A stretch of DNA of 64,000 bases from Candidatus Falkowbacteria bacterium (GTDB lineage Bacteria; Patescibacteriota; Patescibacteriia; JAACEG01): the NCBI GenBank assembly GCA_018651725.1, contig JABIDK010000019.1, forward strand, positions 3,894 to 67,893. Reading direction: 5' to 3'. Under the pieces are notes generated by a model. It did no database searches. It was not told the origin of the DNA and saw only the letters and a program-made list of their open reading frames with translations. Made by a program: the position numbers and the translations under genes. Positions 572 to 63,996 of this stretch are shown here, one piece after another; within the stretch, counting starts at the first letter, position 1, and each line of letters opens with the position of its first letter.

Positions 572-1948
572 TTAAAGGTAATCCTTTAACTTATCGATTC
601 CATCTATATCTTCTATTTTTTCCAAAGACTTAGCTTCGATTTGTCTAATTCGTTCTCTGGTTACTCCAAATTCCTGTCCAACCTCTTCCAGGGTATGTGT
701 TACACCATCGGTAAGACCAAAACGCATTTCTAAAATTTTTTGTTCTCGTGGAGATAACTCTCGAATTACATCGTAAACATAAGATTTTAAAAGTTGCAAA
801 CCCGCTGATCTGTCTGGGGCTACTGTTTTCTCGTCTTCTATAAAACTTTCCAAAGTACTTTCTTCATCGTCATCTCCAACAGAAGTTTCCAATGAAATTG
901 TTTCTTGCGATATCTTCATAATCTGTCTCACCTTATCCAAATCTTCTCCTATTTCAGCGGCCATCTCTTCCGGCAATGGTTCTCTTCCCAAGTCTTGCAC
1001 CAACTGTCTCTCTGATTGTTTGAATTTATTAATAGTTTCTACCATATGCACCGGGATTCTGATTGTTCTTGATTGATCCGCTAAGGCTCTTGTAATGGCT
1101 TGGCGAATCCACCAGGTAGCGTAAGTTGAAAATTTATAACCTTTTCGATATTCAAATTTCTGAACCGCTCGAAAAAGTCCGATATTCCCCTCTTGAATTA
1201 AATCAAGAAGAGACAGTTTCCGACCAACAAATTTTTTAGCGATTGATACAACCAGTCTTAAATTAGCTTCAAGTAACTTTTTTTCGGATGCTTTGTCCCC
1301 TTTGTCTTTTCCTTTTGCTAAAACGACTTCTTCTTCTCGATTAAGTAATGGGACTTTTCCAATCTCACGAAGATACATTTGAATAGAGTCAAATGCGATC
1401 ATTCCTAAATCAAACTTTTTTGCGTTTGAGCCTGCCCCAACACTTAAAAGAATTTTGTCTTTTTCTTCTTTATTACGCAACATTCCGCCGGATGAATCAA
1501 CGATTTTTACACTATCTTTTTCAAGTCGATCTAAAAAATCTTCGAGCAAGTCTAAATAATGCTCCATAAAAGGAAACGAATGGAATATCTCTTGCTCAGT
1601 AATAAACCCTCTGTTGCGGACCTTGTAAAATAAAGTATCCATCTCTTCTGCGTTCGGCTTTTTTATTTCCGGTTTTTCAACAGGTTTTTTAACAACAGCT
1701 TTCTTAACAACAACTTTCTTTTTTGTTTTTGGTTGAACTTTTTTTATTACCTTCTTTTTAGCTTTTGGCTGAACTTTTTTTACTACCTTCTTTTTAACGA
1801 TTGTTTTTTTCAACACAACCTTTTTGGCAATAGGTTTTACTTTTTTAATAGTCTTTTTTTTAGTTGCTTGTTTTTTTACTTTTTGTTTTTTCCCGCCTGT
1901 AACGCTAGGTGTAGCATTTCGGGCAGGTGTTTTTATTTTTTTAACCAT
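572..1948 (-). CDS. rpoD: RNA polymerase sigma-70 factor RpoD with a long lysine-rich N-terminal extension
   Basis: Region 2 motifs ([25 protein letters not shown]) and a region 4 HTH ([19 protein letters not shown]). It lies downstream of dnaG in the classic dnaG-rpoD operon. The N-terminal ~100 aa are KKVxKK repeats. Confidence 0.92.
1731..1802. repeat. Imperfect 36-bp tandem duplication (2 units) inside the rpoD 5' region, encoding a repeated [11 protein letters not shown](A/T) peptide
   Basis: ggttgaactttttttattaccttctttttagctttt is followed by ggctgaactttttttactaccttctttttaacgatt. Confidence 0.7.
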
Positions 1949-1991: not shown

Positions 1992-3785
1992 TTAAAGTTC
2001 CATTAATTTTTTATCAAGTTCAGACACTCGAAGAAGTAATTCATCTGTTATTTTATCTTCTCCGGTCTTTTCACTTTCTTGCAGCTCTTTTTCCAGTATT
2101 TTTTTTTGCTTTAAAATATATTCTTTTTTAAGATCTGTTAAGTTCTCGGTAATTTGTTGCTTAATTTCTTTTTCTGAAAAATCAAAAAAATCTTTTTCAA
2201 CTAAAAGTAAAAGAGTTTGGCAAAGATTAAATAACTGCTCGTTACTTTCTTTAAAATGACCTAAAAACAAATTAAAGTCAAAACTGCCTTGGCTATTCTT
2301 ATAAAAATTAATAAGTTCCTGATAAATCTTTACAAGCTCCTTGTTTGGCAAAACCTCCAAATGCAACTGTGCTTCAAAATAATCCAAATTTTTTGGGTAT
2401 TTTAAAAGCAAACCAATGAGCTGTTCCCCCATTTGGCTTACTCGGTCTTTCTTCTCGGTTGATGCGTTTTTTAATCTTTGGCTGACTTTCTTATCTGGAA
2501 TTTTATTATAACTTTTCTTTTTACTTTTTTCAATAGACTCTCGTAAAATATTTTCTGAAACATCCAATATTTCAGATAACTTTTTTAAATAATGATTTTG
2601 CTCTATTAAGTTAGGAATTTTTCCAATAACCGGTAGTAAAATTTTAGCGCTACTTTTCTTGTCTTCAATTTTACTTGGATCAAGCTTTTTAAATGTTTGA
2701 ACAAAATAATAGTTCAAAATTGACTGAGCGTTTTTTACAGCATTTTTCCATTTGTTAATATCACTTTTAATAAGCTCGTCCGGATCTTTATCTTCCTCCA
2801 GATCAATTATTTTAATATTCATTCCTTCTGCCAGCGCAATATCAATACCTCTTTTTACGGCATTTTGCCCGGCTACATCAGAGTCAAACGCTAAAAGCAA
2901 ATTATCGCTGTATCTTTTTAAAATTTTTACCTGTTCCAAGGTTAAGGCTGTCCCGGATGTTGCCACTGCATTTTTATCTCCGGCTTCATGAACAGAAATT
3001 AAATCCATCTGCCCCTCTACCAGTATAATCGCATTGTTTTTTCGAGACGCTTGCTTAGCCTTGTCTAGTCCGTAAAGAACTTCACTTTTATTATAAACAT
3101 CTGTTTGCGGGCTGTTAATATATTTAGCCGTATCTGTCTTTTCGAGCGCACGGGCGCTAAAACCGACTGCTTGACCGTGCAAATTATTTATTGGAAACAT
3201 CAGCCTGTTCCTGAATCGATCGTAATAACTTGCTCCACCTTTTTTCTGAACTATCAATCCGGCATCAAAAATATCTTTTTGCTTATAACCTCTCTTGAGT
3301 AAAAATCTTAATAATGTATCCCAACTGTTCGGAGCAAAGCCAAGTTCAAAATTTTCTATTGATTCAGGGCTTACCTGTCTTTTCCTTAAATAATCGTTGG
3401 CAATTTTTGCCTGAGGAGCGGTCTTTAATAAATGCGCATAAAACTTTTTTGCCAGTTCGTTGATGTCTAATAGTTTATTTTTCAAATTAGCTTGCTTTGG
3501 ATTTTCAGGAACAAGCTCCACGCCCGCTCTTTTTGCAAGCATCTTCAAAGCCTCTTTAAAATCAAGTCCTTCTATCTTCATTATAAAACTAAAAACATCT
3601 CCACCTTCGGAACATCCAAAACAGTGCCAAAACCCACGATCTTGACTTACGGAAAAAGAAGGGGTCTTTTCGTTATGAAAAGGACAAAGCCCCTTAAAAT
3701 TATGTCCAGCCTGCTCTAACTTAACATACTCCTTAATCACCTCTACAATATCCAATTTAGATTTTATTTCATCCGTATTTGTCAT
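1992..3785 (-). CDS. dnaG: DNA primase DnaG
   Basis: CHC2 zinc finger (CPFHNEKTPSF...CFGC) and a Toprim domain (ILVEGQMD, DSDVAG). Sits upstream of rpoD. Confidence 0.92.
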   Translation of the reverse strand: MTNTDEIKSKLDIVEVIKEYVKLEQAGHNFKGLCPFHNEKTPSFSVSQDRGFWHCFGCSEGGDVFSFIMKIEGLDFKEALKMLAKRAGVELVPENPKQANLKNKLLDINELAKKFYAHLLKTAPQAKIANDYLRKRQVSPESIENFELGFAPNSWDTLLRFLLKRGYKQKDIFDAGLIVQKKGGASYYDRFRNRLMFPINNLHGQAVGFSARALEKTDTAKYINSPQTDVYNKSEVLYGLDKAKQASRKNNAIILVEGQMDLISVHEAGDKNAVATSGTALTLEQVKILKRYSDNLLLAFDSDVAGQNAVKRGIDIALAEGMNIKIIDLEEDKDPDELIKSDINKWKNAVKNAQSILNYYFVQTFKKLDPSKIEDKKSSAKILLPVIGKIPNLIEQNHYLKKLSEILDVSENILRESIEKSKKKSYNKIPDKKVSQRLKNASTEKKDRVSQMGEQLIGLLLKYPKNLDYFEAQLHLEVLPNKELVKIYQELINFYKNSQGSFDFNLFLGHFKESNEQLFNLCQTLLLLVEKDFFDFSEKEIKQQITENLTDLKKEYILKQKKILEKELQESEKTGEDKITDELLLRVSELDKKLMEL

Positions 3786-3866
3786 AAAATAATTTTATTT
3801 TCAAACAATACAAAAACTATATCTGTAAAGAATTTTATCTTATTATACATTTTATACATTCCAAAA

Positions 3867-5201
3867 TTAATACTGCAATGACTCTTTTTCTGATTTGGCT
3901 TTCTCCGGTTCTCCGAAGACTATTTTTTCTATATTGAAAGTTCCGTATTTTGCGGCTTCAAAATATCCACTGATTGCTGCTTCTGCTAAAACGCCGCCTT
4001 CCAGCCAATCAAAAAGCCACTCGTTTGTGTACTCTGGATTTTCTTGCGGAATTCCAGCACCTATAATTGTCAGCCATTTTTTGTTAAATTTTTCTTGTGA
4101 TCCGATTGGTGGAGCTACAATAATTGGAACTCCTAAACCAACATAAAAGCTAAGTTCGCTTGGTTTGGTCCATAAAATATCTGTCTTGCGAAGAGCAACA
4201 TTAAACTTTTTAAAATAATCTTCTTTGTTGTCTGCAAAAATTATTTTTATTCCCTCTCCCAACTCACTGCCAAGTCCCAGCTTCTTAATATTTTCTTTAA
4301 AAAATTTATTAACATCGTTATGGATTCCAGCTATTAAATTTATTTTAATTTTTTTCTCTTTTATTTTTTCTTTTAAACTTTTTAAAATTGTCACTCCCAA
4401 TTCTCTTTGCGCCCCGGCTCCGCCAACTGCAAACATTAAAGTTAAGTCTCCGCCTTTATGGCACGGAAATTCTTTGCCCAGTTCTTTTATAATATTTTCT
4501 TTATATTTATTAACATGCCTGCGGTTTGGATCTAAATTTACCAAACGTTTGCAAAAATCATCTTTTAAGATATCCAAATTCTCTGTGCCAAGATTTTCTG
4601 TTGGCAATGGAAAACCTGTTAAAAAAATCTTATTCTCTGAGACTCCGTAAAGCTTTAATCTCTCCGCTACTCTTGTATTTGGAACCAAATATTTAATTTT
4701 ACTTAAATTAGGATTAATCGGTGCCCAAGCTCGACTGATATCGGCATCGCACACTAAAAGATAAATATCTTGATTAAACCCGTGAAGCTCTGCCATATAG
4801 GCCGGAATAAAAAAACTTGTAATAAGCGGGATATTTTCTTGCTTTAGTTTTTCTATAAAATGTTTGCCCCAACCTTTTTTAATTAAAGAAATAGAACTTA
4901 AAAGCTGTAAATTTTTCCCGGACAAATCTCTTCTGGGATAAAATTTTGGGATAGCCTGAAACTTATCAAAAAGATCAAAGGCGAACTTCCCCACCAAAGG
5001 AACATTTTTAAAACGAGAAATAAAATTATAAAATTTCTGGCTCTGTTGCCAAATTTTTGTGTCTTCTTTTGGGATGCCTTCGTATTTATTAGCATTAATT
5101 ACTGTCCCTCCAAAGGCAATATCATTAAGAGGATAGGCCGCCCGCTGATGACCATACCCCATATCAACAGCAACCACCCAAGCTTTTTTATTTTCACTCA
5201 T
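3867..5201 (-). CDS. GT-B glycosyltransferase, MGDG-synthase/UgtP-like (GT28 family)
   Basis: The N-terminal VDMGYGHQRAA matches the G-x-GH motif of MGDG_synth/UgtP N-domains. The C-terminal GGAGAQ...GVPIIV is a MurG-like C-domain. Confidence 0.5.
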   Translation of the reverse strand: MSENKKAWVVAVDMGYGHQRAAYPLNDIAFGGTVINANKYEGIPKEDTKIWQQSQKFYNFISRFKNVPLVGKFAFDLFDKFQAIPKFYPRRDLSGKNLQLLSSISLIKKGWGKHFIEKLKQENIPLITSFFIPAYMAELHGFNQDIYLLVCDADISRAWAPINPNLSKIKYLVPNTRVAERLKLYGVSENKIFLTGFPLPTENLGTENLDILKDDFCKRLVNLDPNRRHVNKYKENIIKELGKEFPCHKGGDLTLMFAVGGAGAQRELGVTILKSLKEKIKEKKIKINLIAGIHNDVNKFFKENIKKLGLGSELGEGIKIIFADNKEDYFKKFNVALRKTDILWTKPSELSFYVGLGVPIIVAPPIGSQEKFNKKWLTIIGAGIPQENPEYTNEWLFDWLEGGVLAEAAISGYFEAAKYGTFNIEKIVFGEPEKAKSEKESLQY

Positions 5202-7520: not shown

Positions 7521-10190
7521 TTAATAAATTATTAAATCTTGACCTTGTAATATCTCTATATCTGCTTTGATTATACCATACCCACCATCGGTAATCCAAT
7601 GCCTTCTATGATAAAAATTTAAAGTTTTTAGCAAACTCTTGAATTTACGATCAATAATTTTTGTATAAACCTTTGTTAAATAATTATTAGTTCTATCAAA
7701 ATTAGCTTGAGCTCTTTCTTCGCATTTTTCTTGATGTTTTCGTTTTTTACAAGACTCTAATTTTTTTTCAAATCTTTTCTTATTTTTTTCAAGTCTTTTG
7801 TTATATTTTCCAACAGTTTTGTTAATTTGATTTAATTTTCTTATTAAACTGTTTTTTACAAATTTCTTTTTTATATCTCCTGTATCATGCAAGTTTTCAA
7901 TATTTAAGATCATTGATTGAATAGTAGTTTGTTTTTTTATTTTTATTATTTCTTGATTGTCTTCTTCTCTGTTTCCGGCTTTATCGGTTGAGCTGTATTT
8001 TAAATTATAAACAATTTCAGTACTTGTTGTGGGGGCTTTAAGAATAATTGGATCATTATAAATTTCCCAAGTTTCTCCGTTGTCTAAGCTGTATTCTGTT
8101 TTTAAGATTCCAGAGCCGTTTTCGTTGTCTTCGGCTATTAACTCAACCGTAACATCGTTAGTGTAATAATCATTTTCTTTTTCGCCTGTAATATTTATTG
8201 TTGTGCCTGGTTTTATAAAGTCGTCTTGCTGACCTTCGTCTAGCACAGAGCTTGGGTTTATTGAATTCTCAAATATATCATCGCCATCTTTATCTATTCG
8301 CAAAGTAATCTGCTCGTAGTCTTGTATTTCATCTTCCAACTCCATTTGAACTTTAGTGTTTATTGAATTTAATGGAACTTCATTAAAATAAGCTGTTTTT
8401 ACATATTCACTATTTTGGATTTTTTGGACTCTCATATTAAATGATCCTGTATTTGTGGCGTTGCCTTTTATTGTGTAGCTTTGTCCTTCGGGAAGAAAAG
8501 CGAATTTATTGTCGCCCAGTATATCATATACTACTCCCGGAATATTATTTTCCAAGTCTCCGTTTTCCAGTGGTCCGACGTGGTTACCAAAACTATCGTA
8601 GATGTGAAGATCTATTGGTGAGTGAAAACTAATTTGTTTTCCGCTAAAGGTGCAGAAGTTATTATCCTTGTCTGCACTTAAATTTTCATAGTTTTGGATA
8701 TTGAAATTATCAATGTTATTTTCATCTTCTAAAAGATGAACAACAAGTTGCCTTATTCCATTAACACTTGGGATATAAGCGTGTTCATGGCTATTAACGT
8801 AAACTTTTGGAGCCTCAAAACCTTCGGCACTACGGAGTGGTACTGTGCCGTCTCCGGAAATGTATCTTAATGAATATTCGTTGTTCCCTGATTTTTCTTT
8901 GTTTAGGATATAGACCCTGCCAATGGTTGGTTTGGAGCAACCTATAATATTTACTGAGTTTGAAAAAGAATAATCATCAATTGAGTTGTGGAACTCGTCA
9001 ATTTTATTTAAAATAATATTATTTCTATCTGTATTTTTCATAAACTCTAAAGATTGATCGTAATCAAGCCCATGTGTTACGCCATTATTATCCATATCAT
9101 AAATATCACTGATATAGCTTTTATAATTCTTATCTTCTTCGTCAAAATATTTTCTACTTGGAAGAAGTTGGTAAACTGCCGGCATATTTTGGGAGATGTC
9201 TTTAGCGGTATTTTGATTAAATTCAAGCCATAAAAAGTTAAAACCCATATCATCGCCAAACATTAAAGCCTTAAAAGCCTTTGGTGCGCCAAAATGCGGA
9301 GTGGCGATATCAATAAACCTATCAACCGAATCTTCACCATATTCTGTTAAATATTTTTTAACCAATAGTCCGCCCATACTGTGAGCAATGATGTCAACTT
9401 TTTCAGAGTTAGTGAAACTTTTTACTTTATCAATTTTATCTTTTAAATTCGCAATCTCGCCCTCTTCTTCCGGAACATTCCCAGCGGTCCAAGCAATATC
9501 AAGTCGCCAGTCATAGGGAAAAACAAAAAGATTTTTGTTTTCTTCGTAGCCTTTAATTTTTAGCTCTTCGATTAAACCATATAAAAAATCTTGATTTACT
9601 ATTTCACGAAAAACATCAGTTGGTCCAAGCTTATTGTCAACATATGGAACACCGTCCGGGGCCATATCTAAGATGTAAAAAGGTAAATCTTCGCCTGGCA
9701 AAGACATTCTATCCAAATTAGGCCAAACCTCTTTGTTAATTTCCGTGTTCTCCAAATAACTTGCCATAATTCCGGGAACTAAGATAACTGGTTCAAGTTC
9801 TTGTTTAGCTTCCATCGCAAAATTTACTTCAACATCAGAATACAACGGCAAATCAACTTGCTCAACTCTATTCTCTTCATATCCGTCTACATTAACGATA
9901 AGGTCTCCTATGTCGGGTGGAAAAGAAAATTGAAAAGAATAATTTCCAAATTCATCTGTAACAGTATTAGTTATATCTTCATTCCAAAAAGGTGGTGGTG
10001 GAAGTAACCCCCAATCCGCCTCAAACCTAACTTCAGCCCCTTGAATAACTTGACCGGTATCACCATCTTTCACTTGACCAAAGATATTAACATACGGAAT
10101 AAAAAAATCTCCGAGGGCAACGTTTGGCAAAATTAAATTAAGCAACATCAAAACCAACAAAATCCCTCCAAAGAATTTCCTGTTCAACAT
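7521..10190 (-). CDS. Secreted alpha/beta-hydrolase (LCAT/PGAP1-like lipase-esterase) with a C-terminal K/R-rich coiled-coil
   Basis: Signal peptide MLNRKFFGGILLVLMLLNLILPNVALG and a GxSxG nucleophile elbow (IIAHSMGGLL). The C-terminal 150 aa are a charged coiled-coil. Confidence 0.6.
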   Translation of the reverse strand: MLNRKFFGGILLVLMLLNLILPNVALGDFFIPYVNIFGQVKDGDTGQVIQGAEVRFEADWGLLPPPPFWNEDITNTVTDEFGNYSFQFSFPPDIGDLIVNVDGYEENRVEQVDLPLYSDVEVNFAMEAKQELEPVILVPGIMASYLENTEINKEVWPNLDRMSLPGEDLPFYILDMAPDGVPYVDNKLGPTDVFREIVNQDFLYGLIEELKIKGYEENKNLFVFPYDWRLDIAWTAGNVPEEEGEIANLKDKIDKVKSFTNSEKVDIIAHSMGGLLVKKYLTEYGEDSVDRFIDIATPHFGAPKAFKALMFGDDMGFNFLWLEFNQNTAKDISQNMPAVYQLLPSRKYFDEEDKNYKSYISDIYDMDNNGVTHGLDYDQSLEFMKNTDRNNIILNKIDEFHNSIDDYSFSNSVNIIGCSKPTIGRVYILNKEKSGNNEYSLRYISGDGTVPLRSAEGFEAPKVYVNSHEHAYIPSVNGIRQLVVHLLEDENNIDNFNIQNYENLSADKDNNFCTFSGKQISFHSPIDLHIYDSFGNHVGPLENGDLENNIPGVVYDILGDNKFAFLPEGQSYTIKGNATNTGSFNMRVQKIQNSEYVKTAYFNEVPLNSINTKVQMELEDEIQDYEQITLRIDKDGDDIFENSINPSSVLDEGQQDDFIKPGTTINITGEKENDYYTNDVTVELIAEDNENGSGILKTEYSLDNGETWEIYNDPIILKAPTTSTEIVYNLKYSSTDKAGNREEDNQEIIKIKKQTTIQSMILNIENLHDTGDIKKKFVKNSLIRKLNQINKTVGKYNKRLEKNKKRFEKKLESCKKRKHQEKCEERAQANFDRTNNYLTKVYTKIIDRKFKSLLKTLNFYHRRHWITDGGYGIIKADIEILQGQDLIIY

Positions 10191-10798: not shown

Positions 10799-12433
10799 TC
10801 ACTCTTCCCCGTAAACAGCGCTCCATAGTAGTAAATAGCCTATCCCAAGCGGATGGTTTAGGTAGGGGGTGAAAAAATGGATTGCTGTTAATGCGATTAC
10901 TCCGAGTATACTTCCGAGGATTATTTTGTTTTGTTGCTTTTGATGACCTTGTTTTATGATCTGGAATAGTAATAGTAAATATGCCAACAAACCAAAGAGG
11001 CCTAGTTTTAGCCAGATGTCTAAATAGCCCCATTCGAAGGCGTAGGTTGTGTAGAGTCCGTTGGGGTTGTTTTCTAGGGCGCGGGGGTCTTCGGTTTTGT
11101 AGGTAACTGTTTTGCCGAAGCCGGCTCCGAGGATGGAATTTTCTTTTACCTCTTTCCATAATGGTTTTAATAGTCCCCAGCGACTACCGATAGCAACGTC
11201 GTCTTCAGTTGCTCTTTTACTAAGTGATGAAATAAAATCAATGTCTGATCTTTCTCGAAAAGGAATCGGCGCTTCGATTAAAAACCCACTTAAACCGATT
11301 GCGGAAACAAAAATAACTAGAACAACCAAAAAACTTACAAAAATAGATTTTATTTTCTCCTTTTTAAAGACAAGATGATAAATATAATAAACAAAAAAAG
11401 TTGCAATAATTCCAACCGCAAAGCTACGGGAGAAACTTATAATGATCACACTTGCCAAAAAAATTATTAAACTTAAAAATAATTTGTTGCTTTTTATGCT
11501 TTCGGGGGCTGTTGCAAAGCACCGGTTTTGAGATAAGTTTTCAGATTTTAAGGAAATTTCTTTATCAAATTTTTTGCTTATGCACCCGCATAGGCCAAAA
11601 ATTTTAGAAAGAAATTTACTAAAATATGGAAATTTAGACGAAATCGGTGCTTGGTGACAGCCCCACCTTTGAACAAATTTTTTGTTCAAAATTGGCAGTA
11701 AAATAAAAAAAGTTAAAACTGCGTAAATATGGGACTGTAAAAATATGCGGAAAAAACCTGTTTCCATTTTGGCAATTTCCCCTACTCCTGTTATGCGAAC
11801 CCAGCGATAAATTTCAGGAGTTATTCCGATAAAATTATGTGAAAAAATAAAAAGCAAAAAGAAGGTTTTTAATATTAAGGCTGTTAAAGCGGCGAGTAAC
11901 ACAGAAAACAGTTTATTAAAGTTGTCTTTTCTTATTACTTCAAAGATAGGGAAAGCTAGGAGAAAATATAACCAACCATTGGAATCAAAGAAAACATTAG
12001 ATAGTTGATTCTTGTGCATTATTCCGGAGATGACTCCGTAGATAATGAATAAAAATAAAATCAAAAAATAGGGGAATAACTTTGACTTTAAAAAAGCTAT
12101 TTCTAATTTTTTCGTTTTAAAATATTTTAAAAATACTTTAAAAGCAAAAACTGACATTACAACAGCGAATAATCCTATTCTGATTGAAATTGCTTTTTCT
12201 CCTGCTTCAAAATAAAAAAGGTAGCCTTTACTGGCTATTATTAACTCAGATAGAATAATCAATACTCCGTAAAAAAGATTTCGCCAAGCTAAAAATAAAA
12301 CACCAAGCAAAATTAAAATAAAAAATATTTTATTTAACAACGGAAAAGCAAAAGCGTATAAACTAAAAAACTCTATTAAAATAATAGAGTAAAACGCGAT
12401 CTTAAAATACTTTTTATCCAAAGCAAAATTCAT
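10799..12433 (-). CDS. Polytopic membrane protein, O-antigen-ligase/Wzy_C-like, carrying a ~54-codon hydrophilic insert that coincides with a palindromic repeat element
   Basis: More than 10 TM helices. The SxSRS motif (ISFSRSFAVG) resembles Wzy_C. Residues ~251-316 (KKFVQRWGCHQAP...ESIKSN) are non-membrane and map onto repeat 11503..11664. Confidence 0.45.
   Translation of the reverse strand: MNFALDKKYFKIAFYSIILIEFFSLYAFAFPLLNKIFFILILLGVLFLAWRNLFYGVLIILSELIIASKGYLFYFEAGEKAISIRIGLFAVVMSVFAFKVFLKYFKTKKLEIAFLKSKLFPYFLILFLFIIYGVISGIMHKNQLSNVFFDSNGWLYFLLAFPIFEVIRKDNFNKLFSVLLAALTALILKTFFLLFIFSHNFIGITPEIYRWVRITGVGEIAKMETGFFRIFLQSHIYAVLTFFILLPILNKKFVQRWGCHQAPISSKFPYFSKFLSKIFGLCGCISKKFDKEISLKSENLSQNRCFATAPESIKSNKLFLSLIIFLASVIIISFSRSFAVGIIATFFVYYIYHLVFKKEKIKSIFVSFLVVLVIFVSAIGLSGFLIEAPIPFRERSDIDFISSLSKRATEDDVAIGSRWGLLKPLWKEVKENSILGAGFGKTVTYKTEDPRALENNPNGLYTTYAFEWGYLDIWLKLGLFGLLAYLLLLFQIIKQGHQKQQNKIILGSILGVIALTAIHFFTPYLNHPLGIGYLLLWSAVYGEE
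11503..11664. repeat. ~162-bp nested palindromic element, copy A, in-frame inside CDS 10799..12433
   Basis: Outer inverted repeat GGGGCTGTTGCAAAGCACCGG / TCGGTGCTTGGTGACAGCCCC. The ~66-bp core gaaatttctttatcaaattttttgcttatgcacccgcataggccaaaaattttagaaagaaattta is ~85% identical to 19301..19366. There is an inner TATGC-N4-GCATA stem. Confidence 0.7.
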
Positions 12434-17915: not shown

Positions 17916-17957
17916 TAATTTTAATTTTTAAATTTTAAATATTTGAATCTCATCCTG

Positions 17958-17990
17958 TTTAGATGTTTAGATATTTATATGTTTAAATAA
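17958..17990. promoter_or_regulatory. Tandem 8-mer array GTTTAGAT GTTTAGAT ATTTATAT GTTTAAAT ending 8 nt upstream of the ybaB ATG. Second copy of the array found upstream of rpoD.
   Basis: Direct reading. Shared with 1956..1991. Confidence 0.4.
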
Positions 17991-18917: not shown

Positions 18918-19232
18918 CTATCCAATTTTTCCAATTTTTACTTTTGTAAACGGTTGTCTGTGACCGTATACTTTTTTGTATCTTGTTTTGGCTTTGTATT
19001 TTACAACTTCTACTTTTTTGTCTCTTCCTTGCTCTAAAACTTCAGCCTCTATTTTTACATCTTTAACTAAAGGCTCGCCAATTTTTATATTTTCTCCTTT
19101 TTCATCAGAAACAAGCAAAACTTCTTCAAAGTTCACCTTTTTCCCAACTTCAGTATCGATTTTTTCAATTTTTAATTCTTGACCCTCGGCAACTTTATAC
19201 TGTTTACCGCCGGTTTTTATCACTGCTAACAT
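18918..19232 (-). CDS. rplU: 50S ribosomal protein L21
   Basis: MLAVIKTGGKQYKVAEGQ...KVVEVVKYKAKTRYKKVYGHRQPFTKVKI. The start is trimmed to the conserved M of MLAVIKTGGKQ. Confidence 0.9.
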   Translation of the reverse strand: MLAVIKTGGKQYKVAEGQELKIEKIDTEVGKKVNFEEVLLVSDEKGENIKIGEPLVKDVKIEAEVLEQGRDKKVEVVKYKAKTRYKKVYGHRQPFTKVKIGKIG

Positions 19233-19253
19233 AAATTTAAAAACTAAACCCAT

Positions 19254-19420
19254 AGACTGGTTACATAATAAGCTATGTTACGAAATTCTCAGATTTTGAG
19301 GAAATTTCTTTTAAAAATTTTTTGCTTATGCCTTAGCATAGGCCGAAAATTTTTAAAAGAAATTTACCAAAATACGGGGATTGCAGTAATAGCTTATTGT
19401 GTAACCGGTCTATTACAAAG
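19254..19420. repeat. ~161-bp nested palindromic element, copy B, in the rplU 5' leader, bounded by inverted copies of a 22-bp dyad motif
   Basis: TIR-like ends tagactGGTTACATAATAAGCTATGTTAC ... GTAATAGCTTATTGTGTAACCggtcta. The core 19301..19366 (gaaatttcttttaaaaattttttgcttatgccttagcataggccgaaaatttttaaaagaaattta) is itself a 21-bp-arm palindrome around TATGC-N4-GCATA. Confidence 0.7.
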
Positions 19421-19457
19421 GTTTAGATATCTTTATTAATAATGCTTAAATGATATA

Positions 19458-19901
19458 CTATTTTCCTTTTTCTGTCAATATCTTTACGGTCTCGCCTACT
19501 TTTATACCATATTTTTCACAAAATCCGGCGTTTACCTCTAAAACTTTGTTTGCTTTTTTACTTGGAGTATAGCTTGGAATATTTCCATTGGACGGGATCT
19601 CTGCATTTTTTGCTATCTCAACAACCGTATTATCATCTATCCAAATTATATCGATCGGGAATTTCATATCCTTCATCCAAAAAATATGTGTATCTTTTTC
19701 ATCAAACACAAAAAACAAACCACAATCCTGACACAAACTATCACGTCCGGAAAGCCCCTGTCTTCTGCCTGAAAATGTATCTACTGTTTCTATACTTATA
19801 ATTTTATCCCCTATTTTTAGTTCTGTATTTATATCCTCATTCTTAACTCCACAACCACTAAACAAAATAACAATTAAAAATAATAAAAAAGTTTTTTTCA
19901 T
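19458..19901 (-). CDS. DUF192 (COG1430) lipoprotein
   Basis: Lipobox MKKTFLLFLIVILFSGC. The DUF192 signature is GLSGR...FVFD...MKDMKFPIDIIWID. Confidence 0.65.
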   Translation of the reverse strand: MKKTFLLFLIVILFSGCGVKNEDINTELKIGDKIISIETVDTFSGRRQGLSGRDSLCQDCGLFFVFDEKDTHIFWMKDMKFPIDIIWIDDNTVVEIAKNAEIPSNGNIPSYTPSKKANKVLEVNAGFCEKYGIKVGETVKILTEKGK

Positions 19902-32063: not shown

Positions 32064-32118
32064 AATTTAAAAAATTAATGATTTATATAATAATTATATC
32101 ATAAATAATAAAATTATG

Positions 32119-33672
32119 CTACAAGTCTAATGCCACCCCACTTCTTCTTTTGTCTCCGGCTCCGTCAAACTTTTTGTCTTGATAGGTTGTTGTGTGAGCT
32201 CCGCCAAAAAACATATTTTTCTCAGAAAATTCTGTAATTTTGTCTTTTCTACTTATTTTTTTTATTTTTTCTATTACTTTTTTGTCAAAACCCGGCTCAA
32301 TGTTAAAACTGTTTCTCTCCCAGTGAATTCTTGGTGAATCTACGGCCTCGCTAACATGCATTTTAAAGTCGATAATATTTGAAATAACTTGCAAAATTGC
32401 GGTTCTAATCCTGTTTGACCCACCAGATCCGAGAACTGCCTCCGGACAATCATTTTTTAAGACCATAGTCGGACTCATCATGGACGAAATTCTGATATTT
32501 TCTTTCCATTTATGAAATCCAAGAGGATTTACGTCTTCCTCGCCCAACATATTGTTCATCATAACACCTGTTCCCGGGATTACATACGAAGATCCCTCAC
32601 CATTGCTAGTTGTCATAGTGGCGGCGTTTCCCTCGGCATCTATTACACTAAGATGCGTGGTACTGCCCCATTTATTAATTTCACTACTTAATATATCTTT
32701 ATACTTTTCCACATGCTTGCTTCCTAAAAATTTTTCTATAACATCTTTATTGTATAAGTTATCATCATAACTGTCTTGTCTGGCTAAATTTGTAATTCTC
32801 ATTACATCAGCCAATATTTTCAAATGTTCAAAGCTACCATGTTTTATTTTGCTAAAATCAATACTTTCCAAAAGCTCAAGTGCAAAAGCAATTAAAGCAC
32901 CTCCTGAACTTGGCGGCGGATTAGTAATAATTTCATTACCTCGATAGTTAATTTTAAGAGGGTCTCTCTCGATTACTTTATAGTTCTCTAGGTCTTCTTT
33001 AGTTAAATAGCCCCCCTTTTCTTTAGAGTCTTTAATTAACTGTGAAGCAATTTCACCTTTATAAAAAGCGTCTGTTCCCTCTCTAGATAAATAATCCAAA
33101 GTATCTGCTAACCCGGTCATTTTACAAAGTTCTTTGGCTTTTATTAAATTTCCGTTGCTTTCAAAAATCGCTTTTGTTTCTTTATCACTAGTCATAATTG
33201 GCCCTAAAAGAGTCAAACAATAGTGTTGAAAGCTATTTAACTCCAATCCTTTTTTAGCGTATTCAATTGCCGGATCAGCCACCACTTCAAAAGGTAATCG
33301 CCCTAATTTTTTATGAACATGAAAAAATCCAGCCACATTTCCCGGCACAGCCATAGACCCTAAGCCAACATGAAACTCTTGGGTCACATCGCCAAAATCA
33401 ATTTCTACCGGATAAAAATCTGGTTTTCCATTTATTTTCTTACTCCCCGGAGTCTGTGTAAAAAAATCAAACAAAGTATTCTGTTTATCTTTTGTATGCG
33501 CCAGCAAAAACCCGCCTCCACCCAAAGATGTAAGCATATACTCAGCCACACACGAAGCCAACCCCGCTCCAATCGCCGCATCAAATGCATTACCGCCTTC
33601 CTCTAAAATTAACCTCCCTGCCTCAGCGGTCTTAATATGCCCGGCCGAAACCACGCCCTTTTTATTTGCCAT
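32119..33672 (-). CDS. ggt: Gamma-glutamyltranspeptidase
   Basis: N-terminal VVSAGHIKTAEAGRLILEEGGNAFDAA. Autocatalytic threonine in GSTTHLSVID, followed by GGxxI. Confidence 0.85.
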   Translation of the reverse strand: MANKKGVVSAGHIKTAEAGRLILEEGGNAFDAAIGAGLASCVAEYMLTSLGGGGFLLAHTKDKQNTLFDFFTQTPGSKKINGKPDFYPVEIDFGDVTQEFHVGLGSMAVPGNVAGFFHVHKKLGRLPFEVVADPAIEYAKKGLELNSFQHYCLTLLGPIMTSDKETKAIFESNGNLIKAKELCKMTGLADTLDYLSREGTDAFYKGEIASQLIKDSKEKGGYLTKEDLENYKVIERDPLKINYRGNEIITNPPPSSGGALIAFALELLESIDFSKIKHGSFEHLKILADVMRITNLARQDSYDDNLYNKDVIEKFLGSKHVEKYKDILSSEINKWGSTTHLSVIDAEGNAATMTTSNGEGSSYVIPGTGVMMNNMLGEEDVNPLGFHKWKENIRISSMMSPTMVLKNDCPEAVLGSGGSNRIRTAILQVISNIIDFKMHVSEAVDSPRIHWERNSFNIEPGFDKKVIEKIKKISRKDKITEFSEKNMFFGGAHTTTYQDKKFDGAGDKRRSGVALDL

Positions 33673-59943: not shown

Positions 59944-62900
59944 CTATTGTCTAAAATTAGTTTGTCCTTCGTTGGAATCTGTTGGTTTTTCGTTCTTTCC
60001 TCTTAAGCGATAATTTTCATAGGCGAAGTAACCTGTTACTAAAAGAAGTAAAACTATTAACCACCACCAATTTTGCCAACAACCGCAGGTGCTACAGGTG
60101 CTTGAAGCATTACATTCATCCGTATAACAAACTTTATCGTTTTTTGTTTCTTTATCCCCTTGATCTTCTTCGCCAGCTTTCACCTGTTCTCCTAACACTT
60201 CTCCATCGACTGCTTGGACACCTGAACCAATAGCCCCTTCTTCTTGAGCTACTGCTTGCAGATCACCTTCCTGTTGCTCTTCACCATTTGAATTTGTAGA
60301 CCCTTCGATCTCTTGAGAAGAAGTTGATTGCCCTTCTTGTTCTTCTACTTCTTCTATTGCACAAGTAGAGCTACAGCCATCTCCGCTTAATATGTTTTGA
60401 TCGTCACACTCTTCAGCACCCTCTAAAACACCGTCTCCGCATAGAGTTTCAGTTTCTATTTTATAAAGACATACTTTTTGAATATCAACACTATTTGGTA
60501 GTGTTTCCGGTGGACATTGAGTAGCAGTATCCATTATAATCGTATTTTCACCTTTGTAGAAAATAAAGTCTCCGGTAAGTTGAGTTCGCATTTCTTCGTC
60601 ACCAGGTCTGTCAAAGATAATGTCGCTTTGTTTTCCGTTTATACTAAAGGTAAAATTTTCAGCTGGTTGAGTTTCTTCCAGACCGCTTCTGTGAACTTCA
60701 GCGTAAACATTGTATAAACCGGTTTCAAGAATAGAAACGATTTCTGTGTCTTGATTTTGGTAAACTGTCCAACCTGATAATTGGCAGTTTTCACCGATAA
60801 CCTTTAAAGTTGTGTCAAAGATATAATCTGCTCCAGCACAACCTTCAGTTTTACATTCACTATCGCATCCGTCACCAGAGATATTATTACCATCGTCACA
60901 GTCTTCTTCCGCGTCTACTGTTCCGTCTCCGCAAACAGGTGTACAAGAGTTGGTAGTGAAAAACACTTCATCACTAAATACCTCGCTGCTATAAGTGGAA
61001 ATCGCTCGACAGTAGTATCCTGTGGATTGGTTTAATCCGGTTACATTTACGCTATGAAAAGTTACTTGACTCAAATCTTTTTCCGTTGAAAAATCATAAC
61101 CAAGATCCGGCCAAGCACCAAGTGGGTCTGACGGACTTAGTCCGCAAACAACTCGACTGGTAGCGTTTCTATTTGTGTGCCAAGTAATAGTGGCGTTATC
61201 ACATCCCGGAGCAGCTGCTTCAGAATGAATATAAAGAGATACAGGGCCTCCGCCGCCTCCGCCACCTCCGCCGCCGCCACCACAATCGGTGGTTTTATTG
61301 GCGTCGTTATCATCACAGTCAACTGGTCCACAGTCACCACCCTCTTGGGCGTAACCATCACCATCGTTATCGGTACAAGTTGGACCGGGGCAAGAATCAT
61401 CGTAACCATCACAATCCTCATCTATTTCATTGCCACAAATTTCTTCTTGAGGTTCGATTGCACCTTCACACTCTCCCCATGCTCCAAGTGAACAAATTTG
61501 AGTTCCAAACTCACAAGCGCCAACATCGGTTGAACCGCATTGTCTGGTCTCTCCTTCCTCACACTCTTCAATCTCTGTAAAATAATTTCCAAAGTTAACT
61601 ATTTTATTATCTCCATTAACACTAACTTGAATAGGATTCCCGGTTGTGTTGGTCCAATTTTCCTTTAGAATCTCCGCAACCGTGTAATCTCCAGTTGATA
61701 GTCCGTAAAAACAATATCCGTTTTCTCCGGTTATCTCTGAAGTGTCTTCTTCACCTGGGTTTAAATGAATTGTCCAGTCTGTTAAGTTATCTTCTCCGTC
61801 ATCCCAAATACCATCTTGGTCCAAATCTTCAAACTTATTACCACAGATACTTCCTAAGCACTCTTCCAATAAAGCAGAAGAATAATCTGTATAATATCCA
61901 TCGTCAGCCACATTAACGGTTAACCAAAAATGAGAGTAGTTATCTGCACCATCAAGCCAAACTTCATCGTCTCCGGCACTATTCTTTGTGCCATCGTTAT
62001 CATTATAACCTCCAACCTCTGAGTCTTGCTCTAAAGTATTGTTTCCTGAATTATCGTTTCGCAAGTGAGTAGGGGAAGCGTTATAAAATTCAATATAACC
62101 GTCTAAATGTTCAAGATCTGCTCCGGTTGGATTGGTGCCGTGTAAAACAACACGAACACTACCGTTTAACCTTTGAACAGCCAAACCAGGGACATTTTCA
62201 TATCCTAAAATATCGGTATCTTCAATATAAATACCGTTCTCAACAAGAGGAAACCATTCACCAGACTCATAGATATTATCCGGAGAACCAACATAAATTT
62301 GATTTGTAGAGGTAGCATTTCCTTCGCTTGAATAGTTATCCACAACTACTCTAGCCATTATTAAATCACAATTTTCTTGTTCACAAGTCGCATTACAACC
62401 ATCACCGTTTTCTGTATTTCCGTCATCACACTCTTCGTTGTCGTCAACTACTTCATCTCCACAATAAGATGAAACTTGCTCGAAAAAAGCACATATCGGC
62501 TCTAAACTATTAGGATTAGTATAGTCAGGATAAAACGCATGGTTAGCAATCACTTCATTAACATCACCACTAACAACCAATAAATTATTAACAACATTAA
62601 TCTCTGAAGCATAAATAACATTATCTTCTAAATCATCTGTTATTCCTGACTTTGCTACAAACTGACTATTATTTTGCAATATAACTTCATATTGTTCATT
62701 TGGCTGAAAACTAGTTACCCTTGTTGGTTTACCATCAAAAGCAGCTAATGTAACTTTATAGTTACCTGCTGGGATAAAAGAATTTACTAACTCTTGATAT
62801 TCATCATCTCTACTTGAAAATATTTTTTCAGTAAAATCAACAACATATGATTCTCCTTCAACTGCAATAAATGGACAATCTATTCTGGTAATTTCACACT

Positions 62901-63996
62901 CACTACTACACCCATCACCATCTTCTGTATTACCGTCGTCACATTCCTCATCTCCCTCTAAAATTCCGTTTCCGCACCCCGGAAGTTCAATGACACAGTT
63001 AGCACTACATCCGTCGCCATCTGTTTGATTACCGTCGTCACACTCTTCGGGCCCGTTAGTAATATAGTCACCGCAATATTCTTCAGGGATACATTCTCCC
63101 CAAGCACAATCAGTACAAACTTTATGACCATTGTATCCGGTATATCCGTCACCGGTTACACACGATTCCGCGCAAGAACAATCACATTCTTCGCCATCTT
63201 CTACAATGTAGTTACCGCAAATAGGTTCTTCGATAGTACAGTTAGCGCTACAACCATCACCGTCTATTTGATTACCATCATCACACTCTTCATCTCCTTC
63301 AACAGCTCCATCACCGCAAACCGGGCCGCAATCACCGCAAGTGCACTGATTTTCAGCTCCCGGAGTACCAAATTCCACTGCTCCAGAATCCCAATTTACT
63401 TGAGCCGAAGCTGTACACCAATTATCTGCTAAAGCACCGTTACCTGGATCTTGAAGTCTGGACATTGCTTTTTTCGGACTAACGTTATCGCCTTCAAAAG
63501 GAACACCGCCATCACCGGCTGTATCGATTAAAATACCGCTGTCGTCCCAATCTCCATTACAATATAATTTTACCTGAAGTTGAGTATTTAATAAATTAAC
63601 TGCTGTATTAACTAAATCAGGAGTGATTCCAATTTTTGAACTAGCTTCATCGTAATTCGCAATTAAAAAGAAATCATTTGCTCCTATTATTTTAGAAGCG
63701 GGAATTTCAAGCATCAAAACTTCACTACCCGACATTCTTGTTAATTGACAACCATCCAAATTAAGTGCTTCTCCGGTTGTGTTTCTAAGTTCAATCCACT
63801 CATCAGCCATAGAAGATGAGCTCCCCGACCACATTAACTCATTTATTACAACCTCGCCAACAGTAGGTGTTGCTATTTCGCTGGCACTGGCTGAACTGGC
63901 GATTATTAAATTAAATGGAAAAGCTATGAGTATCATTAGAAAATAATACAAGGCTTTTTTTGTTGTCCCTCCATTTTTTAGTGTTGTGTGTTTCAT
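59944..63996 (-). CDS. Giant (1350 aa) secreted protein with an N-terminal lamin-tail domain (LTD), at least 5 Myxococcus-type cysteine-rich repeats, a Gly12 linker and a C-terminal Cys/Trp motif plus TM plus basic tail
   Basis: Signal peptide. LTD (VVINELMWSGSSSSMADEWIELRN). Repeats of form CGDGxVEGDEECDDGNxxDGDGCSxxC. GGGGGGGGGGGG run. C-terminus ...CSTCGCWQNWWWLIVLLLLVTGYFAYENYRLRGK. GC is ~42%. Confidence 0.6.
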   Translation of the reverse strand: MKHTTLKNGGTTKKALYYFLMILIAFPFNLIIASSASASEIATPTVGEVVINELMWSGSSSSMADEWIELRNTTGEALNLDGCQLTRMSGSEVLMLEIPASKIIGANDFFLIANYDEASSKIGITPDLVNTAVNLLNTQLQVKLYCNGDWDDSGILIDTAGDGGVPFEGDNVSPKKAMSRLQDPGNGALADNWCTASAQVNWDSGAVEFGTPGAENQCTCGDCGPVCGDGAVEGDEECDDGNQIDGDGCSANCTIEEPICGNYIVEDGEECDCSCAESCVTGDGYTGYNGHKVCTDCAWGECIPEEYCGDYITNGPEECDDGNQTDGDGCSANCVIELPGCGNGILEGDEECDDGNTEDGDGCSSECEITRIDCPFIAVEGESYVVDFTEKIFSSRDDEYQELVNSFIPAGNYKVTLAAFDGKPTRVTSFQPNEQYEVILQNNSQFVAKSGITDDLEDNVIYASEINVVNNLLVVSGDVNEVIANHAFYPDYTNPNSLEPICAFFEQVSSYCGDEVVDDNEECDDGNTENGDGCNATCEQENCDLIMARVVVDNYSSEGNATSTNQIYVGSPDNIYESGEWFPLVENGIYIEDTDILGYENVPGLAVQRLNGSVRVVLHGTNPTGADLEHLDGYIEFYNASPTHLRNDNSGNNTLEQDSEVGGYNDNDGTKNSAGDDEVWLDGADNYSHFWLTVNVADDGYYTDYSSALLEECLGSICGNKFEDLDQDGIWDDGEDNLTDWTIHLNPGEEDTSEITGENGYCFYGLSTGDYTVAEILKENWTNTTGNPIQVSVNGDNKIVNFGNYFTEIEECEEGETRQCGSTDVGACEFGTQICSLGAWGECEGAIEPQEEICGNEIDEDCDGYDDSCPGPTCTDNDGDGYAQEGGDCGPVDCDDNDANKTTDCGGGGGGGGGGGGPVSLYIHSEAAAPGCDNATITWHTNRNATSRVVCGLSPSDPLGAWPDLGYDFSTEKDLSQVTFHSVNVTGLNQSTGYYCRAISTYSSEVFSDEVFFTTNSCTPVCGDGTVDAEEDCDDGNNISGDGCDSECKTEGCAGADYIFDTTLKVIGENCQLSGWTVYQNQDTEIVSILETGLYNVYAEVHRSGLEETQPAENFTFSINGKQSDIIFDRPGDEEMRTQLTGDFIFYKGENTIIMDTATQCPPETLPNSVDIQKVCLYKIETETLCGDGVLEGAEECDDQNILSGDGCSSTCAIEEVEEQEGQSTSSQEIEGSTNSNGEEQQEGDLQAVAQEEGAIGSGVQAVDGEVLGEQVKAGEEDQGDKETKNDKVCYTDECNASSTCSTCGCWQNWWWLIVLLLLVTGYFAYENYRLRGKNEKPTDSNEGQTNFRQ
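61246..61283. repeat. Imperfect (GGN)12 trinucleotide repeat encoding a Gly12 run within the giant surface-protein gene
   Basis: The plus strand is cctccgccgcctccgccacctccgccgccgccaccaca. Confidence 0.8.

Follow-up and report, generated by a model that had tools for sequence, protein, structure and literature searches.

Why does a gene for a polytopic membrane protein in a member of the Candidate Phyla Radiation (CPR) carry a long, nearly perfect palindrome within its reading frame? The question arises on contig JABIDK010000019.1 of a Candidatus Falkowbacteria genome (assembly GCA_018651725.1), of which positions 3,894 to 67,893, a stretch of 64,000 nucleotides (nt) called here the window, were analyzed. 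An initial annotation of this stretch had described a palindromic segment lying in frame inside the coding sequence (CDS) 10799..12433, and had proposed that it was either a structured RNA or a miniature inverted-repeat transposable element (MITE). The segment is indeed there and in frame, as a 160-nt hairpin at 11505-11664. It probably belongs to a family of ~160-bp, fully palindromic, non-coding interspersed repeats that are MITE-like and, in function, resemble the Rickettsia palindromic elements (RPEs). Members are found in Candidatus Falkowbacteria and in other Parcubacteria, and literature searches found no published description of it.

A hairpin in frame within a Wzy_C gene

The segment within the gene, copy 1, folds over its entire 160 nt into one near-perfect hairpin, in which nested inner arms close on the apical stem-loop GCTTATGC-ACCC-GCATAGGC. 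Its plus strand folds at -80.4 kcal/mol (z = -11.2), a stability that none of 200 shuffles attains, whereas the minus strand folds at -54.2 kcal/mol. Within the 64-kb window, the core patterns of the element occur in two places only, against a chance expectation of 0.00. These are copy 1 and a second copy (copy 2) in the spacer between a DUF192 gene and rplU, the gene for ribosomal protein L21. Since the window shares copy 1 with four other assemblies of this organism, all independent (L019, L020, L038, and L039), the copy is not an artefact of assembly.

The gene that hosts copy 1 encodes a member of the Wzy_C (O-antigen ligase) family, for which a protein search returned 798 homologues. A subset of 14 orthologues, 485-517 amino acids long and 47-61% identical to the window protein, was aligned with it, and all 14 lack the 53-55 codons of residues 256-310. 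The orthologues run from …NKKFVQK straight into KEKIKNN…, where the window protein has 55 residues in between. The absence of the segment from every aligned orthologue, which the initial annotation had named as the mark of an insertion, indicates that the repeat was inserted into a pre-existing Wzy_C gene. As an observation on the homologues themselves, one close Wzy_C orthologue (P0010) carries the label 'Xanthomonadaceae bacterium', probably through a labeling or binning error.

An AlphaFold2 model of the host protein, built on the orthologue alignment, is confident overall, with a predicted template modeling score (pTM) of 0.76. The predicted local distance difference test (pLDDT) falls below 50 solely at residues 251-315, between helices 234-250 and 311-332. 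Because these low-confidence residues lie between confident helices, the model places the insert in a Lys-rich, basic loop that is normally very short, connects two transmembrane helices, and immediately precedes the Wzy_C domain. The extra loop and its Cys content had been recognized in the initial annotation, which set its limits at about residues 251-316; the alignment narrows them to 256-310.

The insertion preserves the frame and introduces no stop codon, adding a Lys-rich loop of ~54 residues with four Cys. Only one of the six frames of copy 1 is open, and it is exactly that of the host. No other copy of the repeat has a fully open frame, stops being found in all frames, and about 2% of shuffles of the copy 1 segment stay open. 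Since the sole open frame is the host's, the other copies are closed, and so few shuffles remain open, the reading frame of copy 1 argues for selection on translation through the element. Its survival is probably owed to a permissive loop, entered in phase and without stop codons.

A dispersed family with two kinds of ends

Copies 1 and 2 align without gaps over 100 nt at 83% identity, and profile searches extend the homology to ~158 nt. The ~66-bp core at 19301..19366 that the initial annotation gave as ~85% identical to copy 1 thus marks a genuine second copy, whose homology is longer than was first described. Copy 2 folds at -81.8 kcal/mol on its plus strand (z = -15.3) and at -61.3 kcal/mol on its minus strand, and all 10 independent assemblies examined carry it. 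It lies 21 nt upstream of the probable start of rplU, which is placed at Met8 because the Pfam L21 match begins at residue 8.

This position had led to copy 2 being described as part of the rplU leader. The location upstream of rplU stands, yet a role as a conserved leader is rejected: there is no Rfam hit, and in L021 no copy precedes rplU, the repeat lying elsewhere. Comparison between genomes therefore indicates that copy 2 is an ordinary intergenic insertion without synteny. Across the whole window, Rfam at gathering thresholds returns one tRNA only. Matches obtained in E-value mode were rejected, these being miRNA-type hairpins far below their thresholds and an IS605-orfB match with an E-value of 6.5.

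That the two segments are chance palindromes, products of an assembly chimera, or native conserved parts of the protein or of an L21 leader has a vanishingly small probability. The AT-rich, repeat-prone composition of the genome is all that speaks for it. Set against it are z-scores of -11 and -15, a core expected 0.00 times, identical sequence in many independent assemblies, the missing segment in the 14 aligned orthologues, the lack of an Rfam L21-leader hit, and the absence of the element from beside rplU in other genomes.

The search for relatives, which the initial annotation had suggested, covered one genome per species by exact-pattern scan, metagenome contigs by exact core match, and 5.8 billion proteins by translated-peptide profiles. 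It yielded ~15 further copies, making ~17 in all, in other Parcubacteria assemblies and in one Saccharibacteria-labeled assembly; the carriers are L001, L002, L004 (three copies), L008, L015-L018, and L021-L027, with L003 more distant. Homologues among the species representatives come from two 'Candidatus Parcubacteria' assemblies (L002, L008) and from two contigs (L001, L004) of a Gammaproteobacteria-labeled assembly with CPR-like composition. The same scan gave the more distant 160-nt hairpin of the Saccharibacteria-labeled assembly (L003). L015-L018 were found in the metagenome scan, and four small spurious open reading frames (ORFs) in the protein set led to L021-L027. Searches with reverse-frame peptides gave essentially nothing (4+1 tiny ORFs over both orientations), and the peptide-profile searches in both orientations found no second protein with an in-frame copy.

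Among viral contigs, one of two patterns gave no hit and the other gave eight that match just the 19-mer and are taken as chance; blastn against plasmid and phage collections gave no match. Beyond both ends of the window there is no further copy in a genome sample of ~79 kb. As to the labels of the carriers, the L001 and L004 contigs (record CAYNJS01…) have CPR-type genes and 31-34% GC but are labeled 'uncultured Gammaproteobacteria', probably as a result of binning or labeling errors.

The sites occupied by the copies are unrelated between loci, show no synteny, and are mostly intergenic spacers (Table 1). Copy 1 is the only one of the ~17 that lies in frame within a CDS, and one more overlaps the 3' end of a gene. 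Assembly SRP167671_co2_162 has four copies, two of each subfamily described below, within 16 kb. The ORFs flanking the three occupied spacers of L004 we take to encode EF-G, EF-Tu, S10, and L3, having recognized them by eye without Pfam. Several copies end 2-40 nt from a start codon, namely copy 2 and those of L021/L022, L017, L008, L027, L004a, and L002. The L027 copy is truncated, and those of L015, L022-L024, and L025/L026 have a short G+C-rich hairpin nested in one arm. These mini-hairpins were considered as a second repeat family, and the idea was dropped because each is unique among the sequences compared. An association with glycan genes (Wzy_C at copy 1, GT4-DUF192 at copy 2, Bac_transf at L018, wzx at L021/L022) is likewise not claimed, as it holds for 4 of ~14 loci and the remainder are heterogeneous. 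With several copies per genome at non-syntenic sites, one of the copies truncated, others interrupted by nested hairpins, and one inserted into a CDS, the sequence evidence favors an interspersed, once-mobile repeat.

Full-length copies measure 160-163 nt and fall into two subfamilies. They have in common an inner ~110 nt (…TTTTCAGATTTTGAGGAAATTT…GCTTATGC-N4-GCATAGGC…AAATTTACCAAAATATGGAAATT…) and differ in their outer arms of ~25 nt. Within each subfamily the terminal inverted repeats (TIRs) are kept across genomes, and the inverted repeat spans the whole element. The window genome has both subfamilies, A and B, as has the L001/L004 assembly. The initial annotation had read the differing outer stems of the two window copies as covariation; the stems are complementary, but they represent two subfamilies with conserved ends rather than free covariation between two copies. 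Of the 11 subfamily-B copies, 9 have the dinucleotide TA on each side, and so do the A copies L004b and L004c. One extra terminus match in the window, at 32112-32129, coincides with the end of a gene; as the surrounding sequence contains no element, it is regarded as a chance match.

Table 1. Coordinates and settings of the hairpin repeat and its neighbors (window positions for the window; contig positions for other carriers)
Feature	Position	Strand	Details
Copy 1 (subfamily A), ~160-nt hairpin repeat	11505..11664	+ (better-folding strand)	Folds; profile match 11506-11663, E = 8e-36
5' outer arm of copy 1, GGGGCTGTTGCAAAGCACCGG, 21 nt	11505..11525	+	Subfamily-A terminus; same terminus type in L004b, L004c, L015, L003
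3' outer arm of copy 1, TCGGTGCTTGGTGACAGCCCC, 21 nt	11644..11664	+	Pairs with 5' arm, G·U pairs included
Apical stem-loop of copy 1, GCTTATGC-ACCC-GCATAGGC	11576..11595	+	Has U·G wobble conserved across the family
Host gene, Wzy_C / O-antigen-ligase-family polytopic membrane protein, 544 aa	10799..12433	-	Pfam PF04932 on residues 323-486
Insert-encoded 55 codons, aa 256-310 (RWGCHQAP…CFATAP)	11504..11668	-	Orthologue alignment; in place of ~2 orthologue residues
Copy 2 (subfamily B), ends TAGAC…GTCTA	19252..19413	+ (orientation as copy 1)	Profile match 19254-19411, E = 7e-44
rplU (ribosomal protein L21)	18918..19253	-	Pfam PF00829 on residues 8-110; probable true start Met8 at 19232
DUF192 gene, upstream neighbor of copy 2	19458..19901	-	Pfam PF02643
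Promoter-like site TTGACA-17-TATCAT, just upstream (gene sense) of copy 2	19450..19478	-	Consensus scan 11/12; pattern match only
L001 copy	7645-7804		Overlaps last 14 nt of a prepilin-peptidase (Peptidase_A24) ORF, supplying C-terminal residues and stop codon
L004 copies (one subfamily B, two A)	2286-2444; 3722-3881; 4378-4535	-; -; +	Three consecutive spacers, fusA/tuf/rpsJ/rplC
L017 copy	1071-1229		Fills AbiEi (antitoxin)-AbiEii (toxin) spacer, gaps of 4 and 6 nt; splits toxin-antitoxin operon
L021 and L022, orthologous copy	L021 10098-10257; L022 1999-2179		10-11 nt upstream of wzx-GT1-GT2-…-Wzy_C operon
L018 copy			Upstream of Bac_transf sugar-transferase gene
Other contexts of copies			Hydrolase/FtsH spacer; uvrA/porB; downstream of PALP-enzyme gene
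Nested mini-hairpins, e.g. CCCCGTTGTTCAACGGG	L015 2286-2308; L022 2139-2158; L025 211-249		L022 type also in L023, L024; L025 type also in L026
Subfamily A ends			Short GGGGCTGTTG…CGACAGCCCC; longer (TA)AGGGGCTGTTG…CGACAGCCCC; copy 1, L004b, L004c, L015, loosely L003
Subfamily B ends			Short TAGACYTGTTGC…GTCTA; longer TAGACYTGTTGCRTAATAAG…GTCTA; copy 2, L001, L002, L004a, L008, L016-L018, L021, L022, L025

One-strand folding and the route of spread

Covariation was assessed on an alignment of 15 copies, with 500 shuffles and slid alignments as controls. In the consensus hairpin there are 61 pairs, with 92.7% of cells paired. Thirty-eight of the 61 pairs have changed on both sides, compared with 19.9 ± 2.3 in the shuffles, none of which reaches the observed number, and with 13-20 in the slid controls. 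Non-canonical features are also conserved, including U·G wobbles and a GA/UA internal loop; 14 of the 15 copies have a U·G pair at alignment columns 100-115, and 10 have a second wobble pair. Both the proposed selection on the hairpin and the expectation that the two window copies would adopt a common fold are borne out, since one strongly covarying fold is shared across the copies.

In each of the 11 copies tested, one strand, always the same in relative terms and designated plus, folds more stably by 10-25 kcal/mol. G·U cells outnumber A·C cells by 63 to 10, and by 39 to 10 without the two conserved wobble pairs (p = 4e-5). A replication-strand mutation bias was rejected as the source of this G·U excess, because the L004 copies lie in both orientations within a single operon, and each folds better on its own plus strand. 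Given the better folding of the plus strand in each tested copy, the excess of G·U, and the exclusion of mutation bias, comparison of the sequences indicates that constraint acts on the hairpin in single-stranded form and in one polarity, whether as RNA or as single-stranded DNA (ssDNA).

The plus strand is antisense to co-directional flanking genes at 9 of 11 loci (p = 0.065), or at 11 of 13 when loci with one defined neighbor are counted (p = 0.022). Throughout the window the plus strand has a negative GC skew (-0.10 to -0.24), and nearly all genes lie on the minus strand. With the plus strand mostly antisense and the skew uniformly negative, the mRNA and the lagging-strand template would usually carry the weaker hairpin. 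As for its setting, the window probably falls inside a single replichore in which the minus strand is the leading one.

These asymmetries suggest, tentatively, a possible mode of movement in which the repeat was mobilized as a single-stranded hairpin, rather than as a classical DDE MITE with duplex TIRs. The mobile form would be either ssDNA, handled by an HUH/Y1- or recombinase-type enzyme at replication forks, as with IS200/IS605-derived PATEs or the REP sequences that RAYT transposases move, or RNA copied back into DNA. Such a route would fit the one-strand folding and the G·U excess outside the conserved wobbles, the pairing along the full length and not at the termini alone, the conserved wobbles and internal loop, and the orientation bias with its accompanying skew. 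A bias with the direction of replication is a hallmark of ssDNA transposition, as in IS608 and ISDra2. However, IS200/IS605 elements have subterminal hairpins without TIRs, whereas the present element is a complete inverted repeat, and no Y1/HUH, reverse-transcriptase, or TnpB gene was seen adjoining any copy. The orientation bias is marginal, and selection against strong hairpins in mRNA or in the lagging-strand template explains it equally well. The TA flanks, moreover, suit transposition of the IS630/Tc1 (DDE) type. Two other identities were dropped: a retron msr/msd, since no reverse-transcriptase gene lies nearby, and an integron attC site, since attC has a conserved base and a variable apex, the reverse of the repeat, which also has no R'/R'' boxes.

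Once in place, a copy may have acquired a function. At the orthologous pair of L021 and L022, the element is 95.6% identical compared with 76.5% at third codon positions of wzx (p = 3e-11), and the 60 nt that precede it in gene sense do not differ at all (100% identity), which makes this a conserved 5' region. By this comparison, the L021/L022 copy evolves more slowly than neutral, which suggests purifying selection on at least one copy. Scans for promoters and terminators at copy 1, copy 2, and L021 gave counts within shuffle expectation and no conserved signal; their sole notable hit is the 11/12 site upstream of copy 2. If that candidate promoter is functional, copy 2 would fall in the 5' untranslated region (UTR) of rplU.

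Such signs could be taken to mean that the copies are exapted cis-acting RNA structures, serving as mRNA stabilizers, RNase III sites, or modulators of translation, so that host selection would explain their persistence and mobility only their origin. This reading we consider rather doubtful. It draws on the slow evolution of the L021/L022 element, the many copies that end close to a start codon, the promoter-like site at copy 2, and precedent, since Correia and ERIC elements are known substrates of RNase III and RNase E (PMC10969869). It is opposed by the observation that the mRNA carries the weaker strand, with its A·C mismatches, at 9 of 11 loci; the strand that appears to be favored is mostly not transcribed with the genes. 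Contexts are heterogeneous as well, and the conservation comes from a single orthologous pair, in which a recent recombination tract could mimic it.

A further alternative, that the copies are independent genes for structured small RNAs (long hairpins comparable to 6S or Y RNA), with A and B paralogues in each genome and one of them overlapping a coding gene in antisense, is improbable. The strong covariation, conserved wobbles, strand-specific folding, and constant length of 160-163 nt would all suit RNA genes, as would the one A and one B copy of the window genome. The same covariation is nevertheless expected of a mobile palindrome that must fold. The copies, furthermore, have no synteny, no conserved promoter or terminator, and no Rfam match. 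In one genome, two A and two B copies lie within 16 kb, and three of these four occupy successive spacers of a ribosomal-protein operon, not all in the same orientation. Truncated copies and copies with nested insertions exist, and copy 1 sits, open in the host frame, in a gene whose 14 aligned orthologues lack it. An identity as 6S or Y RNA itself was dropped because the element is multi-copy and has neither a central bubble nor synteny. Of the two natures proposed at the outset, therefore, an interspersed, once-mobile repeat is favored and an independent RNA gene disfavored, and what survives of the structured-RNA proposal is a hairpin constrained on one strand.

Several observations weigh against a MITE-like repeat. 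The family is rare in public data, being found in four species-representative genomes, four metagenome contigs, and four small ORFs, and the window genome has only two copies in ~79 kb. No longer element that shares either terminus, and no transposase partner, was found in those ~79 kb. The TA flanks expected of a target-site duplication are missing at copy 1 and L015, and TA is itself palindromic, hence inseparable from the terminus as a duplication. Polymorphism for presence or absence within a species was not seen in the assemblies compared. The bias toward folding on one strand and the conserved L021/L022 copy are not what a purely selfish duplex-DNA MITE would predict. Lastly, codon 168 of the host gene (gene nt 502) reads TGA instead of AGA in two of the five assemblies (L019 and L020). 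There, in DNA that is 99.95% identical, the gene is called as two, of 167 and 367 amino acids, whereas the 544-residue form is intact in the window, L038, and L039. Because of this nonsense allele, the insert-bearing protein may be dispensable or decaying in part of the population. The splitting of the Wzy_C gene into two calls in some assemblies is owed to this separate stop codon, not to the repeat.

The once-mobile, MITE-like repeat nonetheless gives the most coherent account of the family. It would have spread through transposition catalyzed in trans, and only elements whose plus strand folds into the full hairpin would propagate or persist, a requirement from which the covariation, the G·U bias, and the conservation of the wobble pairs would all follow. 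The form recognized would more readily be a single-stranded hairpin, of ssDNA or RNA, than two separate duplex TIRs, although the TA flanks would also fit an IS630/Tc1-like DDE route. Copies that survive would more often be so oriented that host mRNA and the lagging-strand template carry the weaker hairpin. Resident copies would then join host transcripts, as parts of 5' UTRs, operon spacers, and one CDS, and some may be exapted. A bolder proposal goes further and is, in our estimate, unlikely: the repeats would constitute a new, hairpin-shaped class of CPR mobile element. Such an element would spread single-stranded in one polarity, be recognized by its whole ~160-nt hairpin with wobbles and internal loops, and bear interchangeable end modules A and B on one core. 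Its resident copies would have been recruited by the host to regulate cell-envelope and translation operons, in antisense or from the 5' UTR.

Known palindromic repeats and consequences for CPR genomes

RPEs (RPE-1 to RPE-10) are palindromic interspersed repeats of 100-150 bp that form several families and lie between genes and, often, in frame within CDSs (PMC10969869; PMC1779305). The peptides they add are compatible with the fold of the host protein, the organisms that carry them are host-dependent with reduced genomes, and the mobilizing enzyme is not known (PMC10969869; PMC1779305). By analogy, they are the closest functional counterpart of the CPR repeat, likened by mode of action and with no membership claimed on sequence. 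The comparison with RPEs and MITEs drawn in the initial annotation holds in this functional sense, through the in-frame insertion and the dispersed palindromic copies. Like an RPE, the CPR repeat has one in-frame copy, located in an inter-helix loop of low model confidence. It differs in its host phylum, Patescibacteria (Candidatus Falkowbacteria) instead of Rickettsiales, and in that 1 of ~17 copies is in frame, compared with nearly half in some RPE families. Its copy number also appears much lower. In addition, each RPE encodes a conserved ORF, whereas no copy of the CPR repeat besides copy 1 is intrinsically open.

The properties of a MITE are also present. A length of 160-163 nt falls within the MITE range of about 50-800 bp, and there is no transposase ORF. 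TIRs are conserved across the family, and copies are dispersed at non-homologous sites. In shape, the closest analogues appear to be ERIC (127 bp) and YPAL (167 bp, Yersinia). YPAL, like ERIC, is a palindromic whole-length MITE of spacers that is co-transcribed with its neighbors into RNA hairpins and acts on mRNA according to its orientation. The CPR repeat differs from both in that it has no sequence match in Rfam or in the phage and plasmid collections, belongs to another host clade, and has two end types on a common core. ERIC, a palindrome over its whole length, occupies intergenic and operon spacers and is co-transcribed as a hairpin whose effect on mRNA depends on its orientation (PMC10969869).

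Should the flanking TA prove to be a duplication, Correia and RUP elements would be the closest counterparts by analogy. Correia, RUP, and Nezha elements are linked to IS630 and to TA target sites. They resemble the CPR repeat in having TA at both ends and in being short, non-autonomous, and near genes, and their transcripts fold. For the CPR repeat, however, no IS630-like partner was found in ~79 kb, and TA is missing at copy 1. Correia elements (CREE/NEMIS) of Neisseria, which are short, non-autonomous, and near genes, give rise to folded transcripts that are cut by RNase III (PMC10969869). They have 26-bp TIRs around an unpaired core, whereas the CPR repeat is paired along its entire length. 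PATEs derived from IS200/IS605, and REP/BIME sequences with RAYT (Y1 HUH), involve strand-specific recognition of hairpins and an orientation biased by replication or transcription. The likeness to these lies in hairpin dependence, strand specificity, and orientation bias; the difference is that their hairpins are short (20-40 nt) and have no TIRs, whereas the CPR repeat is a single 160-nt hairpin. No TnpA(Y1) or RAYT gene was seen near any of its copies.

Other features of the window are noted separately. Tandem 8-nt units (TGTTTAGA, TGTTTAAA, TGCTTAGA; four units) lie at 1955-1992, between rpoD and dnaG, and at 17956-17990, between dnaB and ybaB, and may represent an array of regulatory or binding sites common to both spacers. 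A 1350-residue ORF on the minus strand (59944..63996), for which no Pfam hit is on record, contains diverged, Cys-codon-rich repeats of 93 nt (60349-63318; 60-73% identity, 5-7 units). Assembly L038 has a short stretch in the dnaG region that does not match window positions ~2733-2749, giving an ORF of 621 amino acids compared with 597.

Genomes of the CPR, or Patescibacteria, are usually described as streamlined and repeat-poor, and literature searches found no report of MITE-like, RPE-like, or palindromic elements in them. The presence of such a repeat is in principle unsurprising; what makes it notable is the clade, the in-frame event, and the signals of one-strand folding, orientation, and conservation. 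In practical terms, the repeat confuses gene calls by giving rise to spurious ORFs of 41-91 amino acids and is worth masking in CPR annotation. For the biology of these organisms, the family means that selfish palindromic repeats do colonize CPR genomes. They can remodel proteins in frame, as they do in Rickettsia, which is also host-dependent with a reduced genome. They can also enter highly expressed operons, including the str/S10 ribosomal-protein operon, rplU, and a wzx operon. Strand-specific folding, together with one slowly evolving orthologous copy, hints at either a single-stranded intermediate or a regulatory role acquired later.

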